From the NCBI GenBank assembly GCA_964548365.1, contig CAZJRD010000011.1, positions 4,425 to 68,424 on the forward strand: 64,000 nt of DNA. Direction: 5' to 3'. Below are positions 9,175 to 58,909 of the stretch, in pieces; the stretch's first letter is position 1, and every line of letters begins with the position of its first letter. Source of the stretch: an uncultured Desulfobacteraceae bacterium (GTDB lineage: Bacteria; Desulfobacterota; DSM-4660; Desulfatiglandales; Desulfatiglandaceae). The translations under genes and the position numbers were made by a program. The notes below the pieces were generated by a model. That model ran no database searches. It worked only from the letters and a program-made list of their open reading frames with translations, and was not told where the DNA came from.

Positions 9175-9277
9175 ACCATATCCTCCTTTTCACTTCTGCT
9201 CGTTTCTGTTCACTTATGTTCAGCACATCAGGGCCATCAAGCTTTGGGCCCTTCCATGACCCTCTTTCCCTACATCC

Positions 9278-9295
9278 TTGTGCATTTTGGCACAA
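9278..9295. promoter_or_regulatory. Rex-type palindromic operator candidate overlapping the predicted sat transcription start
   Basis: TTGTGCATTTTGGCACAA is a perfect TTGTGC-N6-GCACAA palindrome. It resembles the Rex consensus TTGTGAA-N4-TTCACAA. Confidence 0.4.
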
Positions 9296-9300
9296 ATGTT

Positions 9301-9328
9301 TTTATATCTTATTTCTGGCTCCTGTCAA
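9301..9328 (-). promoter_or_regulatory. Sigma70-type promoter candidate for sat
   Basis: On the minus strand: TTGACA (9328-9323), 16-nt spacer, TATAAA (9306-9301). About 120 nt upstream of the sat ATG. Confidence 0.5.
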
Positions 9329-9576
9329 GAAAAATATATAAAGAATTCCAAGATTTTTCGGCAACCGGAACAAGCACTCCAAACCTGCCTGGAAGAGGGG
9401 CAAAAAGGAACGTCATTATGGCTTTATTGTTTCATGCTGTGAACAATCAGACACCCTCTTTCAGCTTGCAATTCCGGGTAAGAAAAGACTGGACTCGTGT
9501 CCTCATGAAACCTTTTCAAAAAATCAGGCCTTCAGGAAAAAGTCACACATATTGTATTTCTCGGATCCGGGTATTC

Positions 9577-10689: not shown

Positions 10690-12054
10690 TCAAAAGAATT
10701 CTTCGCCGGGATCTTCCACGATTTCCCCGACCAAATCATACGTATGCGCCTCGGTGATACGAACAGGCATAATCTCCCCGGTAACACCCTTACCCTTATT
10801 GATCAACACCCGTCCATCCACATCCGGCGCCATGGCGGCTGTTCTCCCGGAAAGGAGAAGCGGCGTCTCTTCACACTGCCCCTCCATGAGCACCGGGACG
10901 GCCTTTCCCACAAAATCCCGATTCAACTCCAGGGAAACAGCCGCCTGATGTTCCAGAAGGATCGACCTTCTCTCTTCAACTACATCAGGGTCCACTCTTG
11001 GTTCGAAACGGTATGCACCTGTCCCCTTTTCGGGGCTGAAGGCGAACACCCCCAGGTGATGAAAGCACGCTTCCTCTATAAACGAGCATAACTCCTGAAA
11101 CATCGCCTCTGTTTCACCCGGAAACCCGACCATCAGCGTTGTCCTGAGATATATCTTTCGATTCAAAGCCCGGATTCTCTGCACCAGCTCATGGGGGGAT
11201 TCTTCATGAATCGGCCTCTTCATTGCCTCCAGAATTTCGGGATTCACATGTTGGAAAGGCAAGTCCAGGTAAGGACAGATCTTTTTCTCGGATTCCAGTA
11301 ATGCCAGCAGATGATCAGAAATCCTGTCAGGATGACAGTAAAGCAGCCTGACCCACTGCAAGCCCTCTATTGCCACCAGGTTCTGCAACAGGTCCTCCAG
11401 CGAGCATTCCTCTCCGCAATCGTTTCCGTAAAAGGTCGTGTCTTGGGCCACCAGGTTTATCTCCCTGACCCCTGCAGCAATCATTTCTTCCGCCTCACAA
11501 AGGAGGGAATCAAGGGTACGGCTGCGATATGGCCCTCTCAACCGGGGGATCATGCAGTAAGAGCAGTGATGAGAACATCCTTCAGCTATTTTCAGATAAG
11601 ACAGGTAGAACGGCGTGGTCCGTATTCTCGGAACCGTGTGATCAGCAAGGTAGTTGGGCCTGGTCACGAAGCACTGCCCGGGGTCTGCGCCGGTGCCGCT
11701 TGCCACTCCCTGGACAATTCTCTCTACCTCAGCGGTCCCCAGCCACGTGTCCACCTCGGGAAGTTCTTTTCGCAGCTTATACCCGTATCGCTGCACCATA
11801 CATCCGGTCACGACTACCCTCTTGAGCTCCCCTTTTCTCTTCAATTCCACCATCTCGAGGATGGTATCAATAGCCTCTTCCACCGCGGATTGGAGGAAGC
11901 CGCAGGTGTTGACCACCGCCACATCAGCGGCAGCGGGACTCGTGGCAAACTCGAACCCTGCCTGCCCCAGGAGCCCGAGCATATTTTCGCTGTCCACGAG
12001 GTTTTTCGCACAACCAAGGCTTATCAGGAATATCTTTTCTTGTTTCGGATTCAT
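10690..12054 (-). CDS. rimO: Ribosomal protein S12 methylthiotransferase RimO (radical SAM plus TRAM)
   Basis: ISLGCAKNLVDSE N-terminal motif, radical SAM CSHHCSYC, C-terminal TRAM-like end. The ATG at 12054 is chosen because the ORF-track extension to 12150 runs through repeat DNA. Confidence 0.88.
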   Translation of the reverse strand: MNPKQEKIFLISLGCAKNLVDSENMLGLLGQAGFEFATSPAAADVAVVNTCGFLQSAVEEAIDTILEMVELKRKGELKRVVVTGCMVQRYGYKLRKELPEVDTWLGTAEVERIVQGVASGTGADPGQCFVTRPNYLADHTVPRIRTTPFYLSYLKIAEGCSHHCSYCMIPRLRGPYRSRTLDSLLCEAEEMIAAGVREINLVAQDTTFYGNDCGEECSLEDLLQNLVAIEGLQWVRLLYCHPDRISDHLLALLESEKKICPYLDLPFQHVNPEILEAMKRPIHEESPHELVQRIRALNRKIYLRTTLMVGFPGETEAMFQELCSFIEEACFHHLGVFAFSPEKGTGAYRFEPRVDPDVVEERRSILLEHQAAVSLELNRDFVGKAVPVLMEGQCEETPLLLSGRTAAMAPDVDGRVLINKGKGVTGEIMPVRITEAHTYDLVGEIVEDPGEEFF

Positions 12055-12071
12055 ATCATTCCTAAGTGGGT

Positions 12072-12107
12072 TAGCCCGTTGAGCCCGTTGGCCCGTTGAT
12101 CCGGTTA
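12072..12107. repeat. Tandem GCCCGTT(G) octamer/nonamer repeats in the rimO leader
   Basis: gcccgtt at 12074, 12083 and 12091, plus a degenerate tccggtt at 12100. Complementary to part of the box at 12142-12157. Confidence 0.6.
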
Positions 12108-12139
12108 TCTTCCAAAACTCCTCCGGCTCTTCCCTACTT

Positions 12140-12161
12140 CTCACGGGCAAACGGGTTAACC
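12140..12161. repeat. Intergenic box CTCACGGGCAAACGSGTYAACC, copy 1
   Basis: 20 of 22 nt identical to 14726-14747. Both copies lie 90-150 nt upstream of minus-strand start codons. Confidence 0.55.
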
Positions 12162-12202
12162 GGCTAAACCTAATAAACCTGCGACATAGACCTTGTGATC
12201 CA

Positions 12203-12466
12203 GTGAATCTCCCCCCGCACAGTAGCAGGCATCATGAAGCTCCCGAGAGGCGCCGGGGGAGAAAGCCCTTTTTCAAGTGACCGGTGAGAGGGCGCCGTTC
12301 TTTTCGTGACGTATCTTTGGGGGAAACCGCAGCCAGCCCGAAGGGTGGAATGCGGAGGGGGCAATGCTCCCCCGGAGATACGTCACAGAAAAGACCAGCC
12401 CGGAGCCTCGGAATGGAAAAAAGGTTTTCTCCCCGGATCCTCTATCAGAAGTGGGGGATCATCAAA
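12203..12466 (+). ncRNA. Unclassified structured repeat element, copy 1 (candidate ncRNA or REP/MITE-like element)
   Basis: Collinear with 25719-26017. Invariant blocks alternate with helices that differ in sequence but stay complementary. The G-U wobbles fit the plus strand only. Confidence 0.45.
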
Positions 12467-14583: not shown

Positions 14584-14725
14584 GGCTCTTTTCTCCTTTC
14601 AATGAAGCCGCAGTCCCTCGCAAGGCGTCGGCTTCTTTCTTTGGTTTTCGGTCTCACGTTCCAGTGATCAGCAAAGACTTGTCCGACACCTGGAATCAAA
14701 TCCTTCACCTGCCTCTCATTTGCTC

Positions 14726-14747
14726 CTCACGGGCAAACGCGTCAACC
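14726..14747. repeat. Intergenic box CTCACGGGCAAACGSGTYAACC, copy 2
   Basis: Matches 12140-12161. Lies about 145 nt upstream of the lipoprotein ATG. Confidence 0.55.
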
Positions 14748-14941
14748 AACTAACTTCATCAACCCATCATAAGGTATCTTCTCATGCGCGTATGTCAAGA
14801 AAAAGAAAAAACCCTTTCATGGGAAACAACCAAGGAAGATCATCACGCAAGTCACTGATAACACGATCAAGAAGGTAAATAAAGGGGACCTCATGACCCG
14901 CCGGTAATGAAAAATCAAGCAGCTCAAAAAAGGCTTTTCCG

Positions 14942-14970
14942 TTGACACACGACACTGTTTTCAATATTTT
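14942..14970 (+). promoter_or_regulatory. Sigma70-type promoter candidate for the IscU-like / cNMP-PAS / mla plus-strand genes
   Basis: TTGACA (14942-14947), 17-nt spacer, TATTTT (14965-14970). Confidence 0.35.
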
Positions 14971-15118
14971 CCTCAAATGAAGGGAGTATTTCATTGAAAC
15001 CTCCGGGTCAATTCAACTCCAGCCGGGCAGATCACTTTCCGCAAAATCATGGAAGACCTGGCGGAAAACCTCTGGCCCGGGTTCTCTCGGTAATGCCTCC
15101 ACCTGGAGCAGGAACGTC

Positions 15119-25718: not shown

Positions 25719-26017
25719 CTGAATCTCCCGCCCTCCTATGTGCTACCGCCCAGGGAGGAAGCCTTTTCTTAAGTGACTGGTGAGAGGGTGCCGTCTTTTC
25801 GTGACTTACCAGTGGGGGAACCCGCAGCTCGACGAAGTCGAGAATGCGGAGGGGGTATAGCTATCCCACGCTGGTAAGTCGCAGAAAAGACCAGCCCGGA
25901 GCCTCGAAACGCTAGAAAAGGCTCCCTTCTTGGGCGTCAACCTTCAACTGATCTCACTATTCCAGATCCCGGATGACAGAGGCTGTCCGGGTCCGCCGCC
26001 AGAGGTGGGGGATTCAG
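25719..26017 (+). ncRNA. Unclassified structured repeat element, copy 2
   Basis: Homolog of 12203-12466 with compensatory helix changes. It fills the whole gap between the CoA-transferase B stop and the M20 peptidase start. Confidence 0.45.
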
Positions 26018-37871: not shown

Positions 37872-37901
37872 AATTGCGATTATCCTCGTGCGGAATCACT
37901 T

Positions 37902-37988
37902 CTTACACCTGACATGAGGAAAGTCTGATCCATTCGTCATCATCGACGAGTAATACTCTGAGATTTTTCAATTCAGAAAAAAGGTCCA
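37902..37988 (-). pseudogene. 28-codon stub of a receiver gene (MDLFSELKNLRVLLVDDDEWIRLSSCQV*) 30 nt upstream of the methyltransferase
   Basis: The first 22 codons parallel the receiver at 21612 (MDFFSELKNLRVLLVDDDEWIR). The frame then diverges and stops. Confidence 0.7.
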
Positions 37989-38192
37989 TCTCGATAAACT
38001 TCACCACAGCAGAGTCTATACTGTCAATTGATCTTTTGAAACAGATCTCTGCTAATACCATTAAGCATGAAATAAGCCACCTTCATTTCGGAGGTTAATA
38101 AGCGTAAATACAAGGAGTTATGCGAGGAATAGACCGGGTTAAAGGCGAGAAAATTCGAGAAAATTCAAATCATCTTTTCCCAAAATTGAGAA
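37924..38192 (-). repeat. Promoter plus receiver-5'-end module, copy B
   Basis: Direct repeat of 21548-21828, 16.4 kb away. Confidence 0.85.
38064..38079 (-). promoter_or_regulatory. Sigma54 -24/-12 promoter (stub ORF / methyltransferase)
   Basis: Minus strand TGGCTTATTTCATGCT with correct GG-N10-GC spacing. Confidence 0.6.
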
Positions 38193-38241
38193 AGAGAGGA
38201 AAAGACCCGACCGGGAGATGCAGGACCAATAAGTTGTTTCT

Positions 38242-44439: not shown

Positions 44440-44533
44440 CAGAGTACTTTGGACCTCCGCCACCCTCTGGTGGAACCCATGTGATGTTTTCATAAGGATC
44501 TTTAATGTCGCATGTCTTGCAATGAAGGCAGTT

Positions 44534-44566
44534 AAAAGAGAGGGCAGAGATTCCAATCCACTGCCC
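44534..44566 (-). terminator. Intrinsic terminator candidate after trxA
   Basis: Minus-strand stem GGGCAG / CTGCCC with a 13-nt loop, followed by CTCTCTTTTAA. Confidence 0.45.
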
Positions 44567-44601
44567 CCAAATCCCTTGGAAACCCCTTTATCAGCTACTG
44601 C

Positions 44602-44919
44602 TCAAAGAATGGACTCGATTTTCTCTGTAATCATTGATTCCGGGACCGCTCCTATGATTTCATCTATCCTTTTTCCGTCTTTGAAAAACATCAGCGTGGG
44701 GATGCTCATGATCCCGTAGTTCATTGCCGTTCCTTGGGCTTCATCAACATTCATCTTACAAAACTTGAATTTGCCGTCGTAATCCCCGGAAAGTTTCTCA
44801 ACAGTCGGCGAAACCATGTGGCAAGGGCCACACCACGGTGCCCAGAAATCTACAAGGACCGGCATTTCCGATTTCAAGACCTCTTCCTCAAAATTCTGTT
44901 CAGTTATTTCGTTCACCAT
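44602..44919 (-). CDS. trxA: Thioredoxin
   Basis: 105 aa. WCGPC active site. Confidence 0.93.
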   Translation of the reverse strand: MVNEITEQNFEEEVLKSEMPVLVDFWAPWCGPCHMVSPTVEKLSGDYDGKFKFCKMNVDEAQGTAMNYGIMSIPTLMFFKDGKRIDEIIGAVPESMITEKIESIL

Positions 44920-44951
44920 TTTTTCTTTTCCTTTCTTTCCTTTTTGAAAAA

Positions 44952-57181: not shown

Positions 57182-57280
57182 GTACTCATCTCCTTCTCAG
57201 TGTCGTGGGTTTGCGGATTTGTATCGCCCGCCCCCCCCCTGAGACATATGCTTGAAAAGACCTTGCTTTTTCGGGGATAA

Positions 57281-57309
57281 AGTATAGAGACATTGCTCTT
57301 GTGAATCAA
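57281..57309 (-). promoter_or_regulatory. Sigma70-type promoter candidate for the molybdoenzyme gene
   Basis: Minus strand TTGATT (57309-57304), 17-nt spacer, TATACT (57286-57281). Confidence 0.5.
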
Positions 57310-57549
57310 GAGAAATAACGGCAGAATATATGGTGCTTTCATGCTTCTTGGGGATTTTTAGGCCGGGAAGTGAAGCACAAATCTCAATGAGATAATCCAG
57401 ATCGGAGTAGAGATAATCCTCACAGCGGGCAGTGGGGGTCACATCTTGACCCCAAATCCCCCTACGGTGATCACGGAATGGCACTATAGCACTGCCCACT
57501 AACAGGGGCATACAGGATGTCCCCTTTTCCATGTCATTCCGGTCTCTTT

Positions 57550-58392: not shown

Positions 58393-58697
58393 CTCTCATC
58401 TCGGCAATCAATAAATTGTGCGGCAGAATTCAGATGGCTCGATTGGTCTCTTTTAACAAGGGTTTGCATGGTAATCAAATACTCAATACCGTATTCAGCC
58501 ATCCTTGACAGACTATTCCGGGGACACCATCCCTAATTATTGATTCACTTGAAAGCGTTGGGCCCAGGCATTGCCGGGACCATCAGAAAGCGGGGAAGAA
58601 CGGGCAGGCCCATGGGAGATACTGGTTTCATCGAGGAAATTGAAGCAATGACAGGCTTCAGATTGAACGCCCGCAGGTTTTGCCTTCTTTCTGAACA

Positions 58698-58844
58698 GGC
58701 TGTTTCTTGCGGGGTCAATTTTACCCTTGAAACCAGAGAATCCTCACGATCCTCCTCGTGCCGGAATATCCTTCGACGTTTCGTTCCCCTGATCATGAGG
58801 TGATGTAAGACAAAGGACGTGTCAAGCCGAGCTAATTTCGGCAT
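58698..58844 (-). pseudogene. N-terminal fragment of a Y1 (IS200/RAYT-like) transposase
   Basis: MPKLARLDTSFVLHHLMIRGTKRRRIFRHEEDREDSL..PQETAC parallels the family N-terminus (MPRLARLD..VLHHVM.RG.ERR.IFRDD.DRE.FL). The remainder of the ORF is unrelated. Confidence 0.55.
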
Positions 58845-58909
58845 GCGTCAGGGCCTGCCGCAAGCTGTCAATTTAAAATCTTTGGGACGTTATATATCCA
58901 CGGGAGAAT

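Follow-up and report, generated by a model that had tools for sequence, protein, structure and literature searches.

Two intergenic segments of the window, by which we mean the whole 64,000-nucleotide (nt) stretch of contig CAZJRD010000011.1 from an uncultured Desulfobacteraceae bacterium, are best explained as copies of a non-coding, multi-copy repeat that is present dozens of times per genome and is restricted to a clade of uncultured Desulfobacteraceae. Copy 1 lies between a kinase gene and rimO, and copy 2 lies between genes for a CoA-transferase subunit and an M20 peptidase. No description of the repeat family was found in literature searches and, on these and on the Rfam scan reported below, it is previously undescribed. 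[quoted passage not shown]

The two segments (12203-12466 and 25719-26017) are collinear on the plus strand, with 76% column identity in a pairwise alignment. They share the block AAGTGACYGGTGAGAGGGYGCCGT, at 12275-12298 in copy 1 and 25771-25794 in copy 2, and the block CAGAAAAGACCAGCCCGGAGCCTCG, at 12386-12410 and 25882-25906; each of these occurs exactly twice in the window, compared with an expectation of zero from shuffled sequences. The initial annotation had described the segments as collinear homologues with near-invariant blocks, and in this it was correct. The helices that it placed are also recovered, as inverted repeats at 12301-12324/12368-12391 and 12256-12274/12416-12434; the apical stem is indeed exchanged between the copies (CCAGCCCGAAGGGTGG versus CTCGACGAAGTCGAG in the sequences and in their alignment), and the three wobble pairs that it named (G12265/T12425, T12317/G12375 and T12318/G12374) are all G-T on the plus strand.

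Copies outside the window are numerous. An 18-mer taken from the 3' block is found in 105 stretches of a species-representative genome collection, about half of which belong to metagenome-assembled genomes (MAGs) labelled Desulfobacteraceae, Desulfobacterales or Deltaproteobacteria. Among the matches listed, three Desulfobacteraceae MAGs have the 18-mer on at least 15, at least 12 and at least 9 different contigs, and six further delta-proteobacterial MAGs also have matches. In Streptomyces, Arthrobacter, enterobacteria and other taxa it is the 18-mer alone that matches, and the rest of the element is absent. A 21-mer scan of metagenome contigs added 78 loci, and 104 full-length cores were collected in total, with some redundancy between samples; individual loci are referred to below by L numbers. 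The contigs of many metagenomes (Logan, JGI) stop inside the element, often at the same base, which is a sign of a repeat since assemblers behave in this way at repeats. In independent Logan and JGI assemblies of one and the same organism, contigs also end within the core, often at one base near the centre of the palindrome (L003/L005/L007 and L242-L249, corresponding to about 25839 and about 12329 in the window). No match to copy 1 was found by BLAST in a plasmid collection, and a 15-mer scan of viral contigs gave only chance matches, none of them aligning to the element. With at least 9-15 copy-bearing contigs per MAG and 104 full cores, the proposal of a discrete RNA specific to the kinase-rimO spacer does not stand.

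The fold of the element was scored on 41 aligned copies, using a curated structure that consists of helix P1, an irregular junction helix, helix P2, and P3 with a variable apical hairpin. The paired cells are complementary in 95.4% of cases, against 90.2% in shuffles and 42-52% when the partners are slid, and 27 of the 62 pairs are changed on both sides (13.0 +/- 2.1 in shuffles, with none of 500 shuffles as high). The multi-helix fold with its covariation is real and under constraint, and the earlier claim of a conserved, covariation-supported structure holds on 41 to 104 homologues. P1 (helix 1) is the most variable helix, with 17 of its 22 pairs changed on both sides, and in L082, L113b and L031 its arms are quite different in sequence and still complementary. 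P2 (helix 4) has 25 pairs, of which eight are changed on both sides, and is 98.3% paired, while junction helices 2 and 3, formed by the 5' block with the 3' block, consist mostly of invariant pairs. The stems of the apical hairpin are swapped wholesale between subfamilies, and its loops are mostly C-GNR-G triloops. Between the helices are four nearly invariant blocks that are unpaired or weakly paired: GAAGTGACTGGTGAGAGGGCGCCG, GGGGGAAAC, GAATGCGGAGGGGG and GACCAGCCCGGAGCCTCGGAACG.

In both window copies, two G5 tracts (12319-12323 and 12357-12361 in copy 1) vie for one C5 tract (12369-12373 in copy 1). Pairing of the C tract with the first of these extends P2, and pairing with the second forms a local hairpin; the two are mutually exclusive, both are possible in all subfamilies, and the covariation favours neither. 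Some copies carry extra hairpins of 40-60 nt at defined points in the core, either after the G tract, within the P2 5' arm, or in the apical hairpin, and some of these have CGAAG loops (L024:1740-1978, L040:7731-7974, L046:5413-5647 and L066:5758-5959). The earlier statement that the element belongs to no known RNA family is borne out by a scan against Rfam 15, which gave no match at the gathering score over the whole window; at E <= 10 there was only noise around copy 1, the best sub-threshold hits (E = 1.3) being to unrelated structures. By eye, the conserved positions of the hammerhead and hairpin ribozyme motifs are not kept, and the spacing in the 5' block does not fit a sigma-54 promoter.

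The repeated unit is a core of ~190 nt closed by P1, which is an inverted repeat of 20-25 bp. In many copies the core sits between two REP-like hairpin modules, recognised from the core flanks, which we call L (about 55 nt, (A)GTGAGYCTCCTCCCGCAGAGCGGGAGGCATCAGGTGGCCCCCCGAGGGGGGCT) and R (about 100 nt, ...CTTCTAGACCCCGGATCGGTAGAACCTATCCGGGTCCTCCACCAGAGGTGGAGGGYTTAGYGACAACTAAG). Loop polarity is the same in the hairpin of L (CCTCCCGC-AGA-GCGGGAGG) as in that of R (CCTCCACC-AGA-GGTGGAGG). Two arrangements only are found among the 104 copies, L-core-R in 38 and its partial mirror R'-core-L' in 24, and the other 42 have no detectable L or R. About 40% of the copies that could be classified have the core in reverse with respect to L and R, and both core orientations occur within single core subfamilies and within single genomes.

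Comparison of corresponding loci reveals the inversions directly. In the CoA-transferase/M20-peptidase spacer, the window and L057, L300 and L308, which are from another species, have kept the same L' flank beside the start of the M20 gene, but the core of the window runs antisense to the genes and those of the other three run sense. L261 and L309 likewise align over 1.5 kb in one orientation, and their cores (90% identical) in the other. Downstream of gatB, L260 and L267 have the L-core-R composite as a whole in the opposite orientation to that in L038, L051 and L250. Conservation at this locus is higher in the core than in the coding sequence beside it, and each copy bears the apical-hairpin type of its own genome, a pattern that points either to concerted evolution or to one site having received insertions repeatedly. 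The post-gatB spacer holds the element in at least 5-6 genomes (L038, L051, L250, L260, L267 and L034), with orientation and module content differing, which suggests that the spacer is a hot spot for insertion or that copies undergo gene conversion with one another. For loci with about 100% identical flanks, the core has the same orientation in 39 of 39 pairs, and flips are seen solely between genomes that are about 80% identical, with the proviso that assemblies report the majority state. The inversions are therefore evolutionary events between inverted repeats, and not a fast phase switch; they involve either the core alone between the P1 arms or the whole composite.

Copies also decay by internal deletion. 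Deleted cores (L064:120-260, L093:7760-7830, L077:150-205 and L010:5324-5426) keep the P1 arms and one or both junction blocks and have lost P2 and P3, and they still lie between L and R. Solitary L or R modules are found in other intergenic spacers (L018:3615-3654, L029:2305-2335 and L047:6005-6051), and since they occur without a core these modules are repeats in their own right; nothing suggestive of a transposase was seen beside them. In MAG CAVUFY01 (L031:2230-2560) a core without L or R is nested in an unrelated 21-nt inverted repeat (AACGTTCAAAAGTGTTTGCAT / ATGCAAACACTTTTGAACGTT), and cores may have a tendency to occupy the loops of palindromes that were already there.

All copies are intergenic. 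For the 72 copies with a called neighbour on both sides, the flanking genes are in tandem and opposite to the core in 24, in tandem and in the same direction in 22, convergent in 22 and divergent in four. There is no orientation rule relative to genes, and spacers between divergent genes are clearly avoided; avoidance of promoter-side spacers is known for REP-like repeats. The initial annotation had noted that the element is antisense to every neighbouring gene, which is incidental given the random orientation of the core. The genes that flank the two window copies are all on the minus strand and functionally unrelated, their products being the RimO methylthiotransferase, a Ser/Thr kinase with a domain that binds cyclic nucleotide monophosphates, the M20 peptidase and the CoA-transferase subunit. 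Neither window copy is flanked by a sigma-70-type promoter or an intrinsic terminator, and there is no terminator outside the fold. The DNA upstream of the core is L, R' or unrelated, and no recurrent open reading frame (ORF) is found beside the element among the 104 copies. A 5' leader or riboswitch of the minus-strand rimO and M20 peptidase genes was considered, as both copies lie just upstream of a gene start, and was rejected in view of the unrelated genes, the random orientation and the absence of the insertion from relatives. An omega RNA of IscB or TnpB, or a HEARO RNA, was rejected in view of the identity of the flanking genes and the lack of a recurrent partner ORF.

The origin of copy 1 can be followed at its own locus. 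The longest rimO ORF in the window (10690-12150, minus strand) starts with TTG at 12150, but RimO homologues have 454 amino acids and the exact 454-residue product from the ATG at 12054 is on record in 23 contigs. Since the real start of rimO is at 12054, the true kinase-rimO spacer is ~457 nt. The order kinase-rimO-polyprenyl synthase is kept in relatives with spacers of different length: 0 nt in L235 and L236 (79% RimO identity), 62 nt in L238 (90%) and 143 nt in L237 (78%), as against about 457 nt in the window. L237 is from MAG JAFDGR01, in which the element is present at other loci, among them L038, the copy most closely related to copy 1. The insertion of copy 1 is specific to this lineage, and the corresponding spacer of the nearest relatives lacks it. 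The DNA from the element to the start of rimO also contains a tandem array of about three copies of AGCCCGTTG (12070-12099) and a 13-nt inverted repeat (12095-12107 / 12157-12169), and this ~150-nt stretch before rimO is likewise missing from the relatives' short spacers. The flanks of about 40-42 copies contain no evident direct repeat, and no conserved flanking tetranucleotide or cleavage motif is seen beside the copies. Of the features by which the initial annotation would have recognised an ordinary MITE or REP element, dozens of copies are present and target-site duplications could not be shown. Taken over the family, copies have been gained at new intergenic sites, mostly at the 3' ends of genes, and have inverted over evolutionary time and decayed.

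Which strand is folded was assessed in several ways. The element folds far better than shuffles on either strand (z = -4.9 for the plus strand and -5.8 for the minus strand), so that stability alone picks no strand, and good folding of both strands is what is expected of an imperfect palindrome. Pairs that are G.U on the plus strand outnumber those that are A.C, with 161 versus 36 cells over all pairs in the 41 copies, 108 versus 7 in P2 and the junction only, and 196 versus 48 over all pairs in an independent metagenome set. A covariance model built from the 41 copies finds exactly the two copies in the window, with 181-200 bits on the plus strand and 43-64 bits on the minus strand. In regard to the claim of a plus-strand RNA, the plus strand is thus upheld as the better-pairing strand by the G.U excess and the model scores, and the discrete RNA gene of the kinase-rimO spacer is not. 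A few fixed G.U pairs account for much of the asymmetry, so the plus strand is favoured less decisively than the raw counts of cells would imply. RNA and single-stranded DNA are not told apart by these data, since DNA hairpins tolerate G.T pairs as well. C-GNR-G triloops are very stable in DNA, and we considered C-GNA-G triloops as a DNA hallmark; they are suggestive and not decisive, one copy having a GCAA tetraloop.

A plausible scenario is that selection acts on a complex single-stranded fold and its internal-loop sequences, and not on the terminal sequences. Because the helices covary and the internal-loop blocks are invariant, the folded top strand would be a substrate on which an enzyme encoded at another place in the genome acts in trans by recognising it. 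Most likely this substrate would take the form of a hairpin or cruciform of single-stranded DNA, and the putative enzyme could be a REP/RAYT-like or IS200/IS605-like HUH transposase or some other structure-specific recombinase. Read-through transcription would produce the same rod-like fold in mRNA, where in either orientation it may act in the manner of REP or ERIC elements, as a 3' hairpin or insulator; such mRNA effects would be a side effect and not the reason for the existence of the element.

Several observations weigh against this scenario. A multi-helix fold of 190 nt in which about 45 unpaired bases are invariant has more the look of a functional RNA, and known HUH transposases need far less than this. 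The GCAA tetraloop is of a type typical of RNA. No transposase or recombinase adjoins any of the 104 copies in the 8-14-kb pieces around them, and no target-site duplication or conserved target motif could be defined, the empty kinase-rimO sites being too diverged for the insertion junctions to be placed. Lagging-strand targeting of the IS200/IS605 type would predict an orientation bias, but taking gene direction as a proxy for replication direction, the tandem copies number 22 in the same direction and 24 in the opposite one when the core is considered, and 10 and 13, respectively, in the L-to-R frame. The strand asymmetry rests mainly on the few fixed G.U pairs noted above, and when only minority variants are counted in the independent set, G.U occurs in 100 cells (30 columns) and A.C in 48 (34 columns).

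Among known systems, REP, BIME and REPIN sequences offer a close parallel. Like the element they are extragenic, multi-copy and palindromic, have a mosaic structure in which hairpin units alternate in orientation about a central motif that is conserved, are enriched at the 3' ends of genes, and undergo concerted evolution within a genome. With their associated RAYT, a Y1 HUH transposase, they are recognised as folded single strands and not by terminal sequence. Tested as a member of this class, the element does consist of extragenic mosaic palindromes at gene 3' ends, with 22 convergent versus four divergent spacers. The differences are that REP-type hairpins are 20-40 nt in length, whereas here the central module measures ~190 nt and has three or four helices and long loops that are invariant; that REP heads are GTAG or CGTC, whereas those here are GTGAG (L) and CTAAG (R'); and that the core occurs here in both orientations within its flanks. 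The ERIC/IRU, Correia (CREE) and pneumococcal BOX/RUP elements are MITE-like, fold as RNA with compensatory changes in their stems, and can affect mRNA when co-transcribed. They too are imperfect palindromes of 100-200 nt that occupy intergenic regions in either orientation, and BOX is modular (A-B-C), but they have conserved termini, in some cases with TA duplications or insertion sequence (IS) relatives, whereas here the termini covary and the interior loops are invariant; they also lack sequence similarity to the element and are from another host phylum.

The non-autonomous palindrome-associated transposable elements (PATEs) derived from IS200/IS605, with their omega-RNA scaffolds, resemble the element in lacking conserved terminal inverted repeats and visible duplications, in having hairpins of the same polarity (both with AGA loops here, in L and R, although many copies have neither module), and in having a structured, conserved interior. 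Unlike these, no copy of the element has a tnpA, tnpB or iscB gene beside it, there is no Rfam match to the HEARO or IS605 RNA motifs, and the core flips relative to L and R, which would be intolerable for a guide-adjacent omega RNA. The same absence of a nuclease or recombinase ORF at every copy and the flipping of the core relative to its flanks speak against a guide RNA, either the omega RNA of TnpB or IscB or the bridge RNA of IS110. The large RNAs HEARO, GOLLD, ROOL and OLE share a covarying multi-helix fold with invariant junctions and sometimes have several copies per genome; they differ from the element in its dozens of copies, random orientation and context, decay, differences in presence and absence, and lack of an Rfam match.

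The main rival to a mobilised, fold-selected repeat is that the core is a multi-copy structured RNA that acts in trans or by itself, either similar to a small RNA or ribozyme, or an ORF-less guide-type RNA resembling a bridge or omega RNA and used by a nuclease or recombinase whose gene lies elsewhere, in which the plus strand is transcribed and the invariant loops are functional. Strong covariation together with internal loops that do not vary is what classically marks a functional RNA, and the fixed G.U pairs, the large gap between plus- and minus-strand model scores, the hairpins of variable length and the insertions at defined points (L024, L040, L046 and L066), the one GNRA tetraloop and the alternative folds in which two G5 tracts compete for one C5 tract all point the same way. 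We nevertheless judge it unlikely. There is no sigma-70-like promoter or terminator, and with L, R' or unrelated DNA upstream there is no shared external promoter; the orientation to genes is random, the sites are typical of tolerated insertions, and deletion derivatives occur. None of the 104 copies is beside a candidate partner protein, and Rfam returns no match, including to HEARO and the IS605-related motifs. The conserved genomic context of a stand-alone non-coding RNA gene is also missing, since the 104 copies are in unrelated contexts and random orientation. Complementarity of the bridge-RNA kind between the internal loops and the L/R termini amounts to a 7-mer at most, which is within chance. 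In a more speculative form, to which we attach a rather low probability, the core is an ORF-less mobile structured nucleic acid with functional invariant loops, acting as a guide- or bridge-type RNA or as a single-stranded DNA substrate that a recombinase uses in trans. If so, the nested inverted repeats would let the same machinery insert and flip the core, and what defines the element would be its complex conserved fold rather than its ends; no such class is known to have been described in bacteria.

Two other explanations fit poorly. A classical MITE of a DDE transposase, with the P1 arms or the L/R ends as terminal inverted repeats to which an IS-encoded transposase binds, and with apparent RNA-like covariation generated by template-switch self-correction of the palindrome, would account for a multi-copy, non-coding, intergenic element that is bounded by inverted repeats, variable in its presence and represented by decayed copies. 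It is improbable in that conservation is lowest at the termini and highest in the interior loops, opposite to the pattern of a MITE, that no target-site duplication is visible in about 40 flank pairs, and that no related IS was found among the ORFs beside the 104 copies; moreover, palindrome correction would erase the conserved bulges and fixed G.U pairs. Least probable is an inverton, in which a site-specific invertase flips the segment between the P1 repeats and so switches neighbouring genes. Such a device would be expected to have its segment bounded by 20-25-bp inverted repeats and present in both orientations relative to fixed flanks, as the core is, including at orthologous loci, but the core contains no promoter-like sequence, the P1 arms covary with no recombinase-site sequence being kept, and no invertase gene is nearby. 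Copies are also mostly downstream of genes rather than upstream, and the constancy of orientation in all 39 near-identical pairs, with flips solely at about 80% genome identity, is not that of a switch.

The components of the two window copies are listed in the table. When the modules are placed by BLAST, the L of copy 1 corresponds to 12202-12244 and its core to 12257-12433; the L module includes an inverted repeat at 12208-12218/12252-12262. Short R modules like that of copy 1 are also present in L038 and L051, and the R consensus recurs at many loci. Six other long spacers of the window, of 370-535 nt (9175-9576, 14584-15118, 37872-38241, 44481-44951, 57182-57549 and 58393-58909), contain no copy of the core, L or R by module BLAST and covariance-model scan.

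Table. Components of the two copies of the repeat in the window.
Feature	Position	Strand	Basis
Copy 1, whole composite (L module, core and short R module) in the kinase-rimO spacer	12202..12466	+	Alignment with copy 2
Copy 1 L module GTGAATCTCCCCCCGCACAGTAGCAGGCATCATGAAGCTCCCGAGAGGCGCC, REP-like hairpin	12202..12251	+	Matches the L consensus beside many cores
Copy 1 core	12252..12442	+	Covariance-model match, 181.5 bits; reverse strand 43 bits
Copy 1 P1 5' arm, outer helix, inverted repeat bounding the core	12253..12274	+	Inverted-repeat search, covariation
Copy 1 near-invariant 5' junction block AAGTGACCGGTGAGAGGGCGCCGT	12275..12298	+	Pairs weakly with the 3' block
Copy 1 P2 5' arm, long inner helix	12300..12323	+	Inverted-repeat search, covariation
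Copy 1 P3 (CCGCA/TGCGG) with variable apical hairpin CCAGCCC-GAA-GGGTGG	12327..12355	+	Alignment of homologues
Copy 1 alternative local hairpin GGGGG-CAATGC-TCCCCC	12357..12373	+	Folding
Copy 1 P2 3' arm	12369..12393	+	Inverted-repeat search, covariation
Copy 1 near-invariant 3' junction block CAGAAAAGACCAGCCCGGAGCCTCG	12386..12410	+	Invariant in almost all homologues
Copy 1 P1 3' arm	12416..12436	+	Inverted-repeat search, covariation
Copy 1 truncated R module (…CAGAAGTGGGGGATCATC)	12444..12466	+	Aligns to the end of the copy 2 R module
Copy 2, whole composite in the CoA-transferase/M20-peptidase spacer	25719..26017	+	
Copy 2 core	25748..25939	+	Covariance-model match, 200 bits
Copy 2 R module, hairpins CCCGGATGACAGAGGCTGTCCGGG and CCGCCGCCAGAGGTGGGGG	25937..26017	+	Module BLAST places R at 25937-26011

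The element does not have the appearance of a novel riboswitch or ribozyme, nor of a novel regulator of rimO. The family belongs to a well-known kind of genome feature, and is unusual in how large and how well conserved its fold is and in its nested inversions. For the annotation of Desulfobacteraceae MAGs it is a family to be masked, as it breaks assemblies, inflates spacers and mimics novel non-coding RNA in comparative screens. It is also an unusually clean case of a bacterial repeat selected for a complex single-stranded fold, in which the loops are invariant and the stems and termini covary, and it records repeated in-situ inversions of nested palindromic modules. The enzyme that recognises the fold, once identified, would show how structure-defined repeats spread, and the family provides about 100 natural variants with which selection at the level of RNA can be contrasted with selection at the level of single-stranded DNA.

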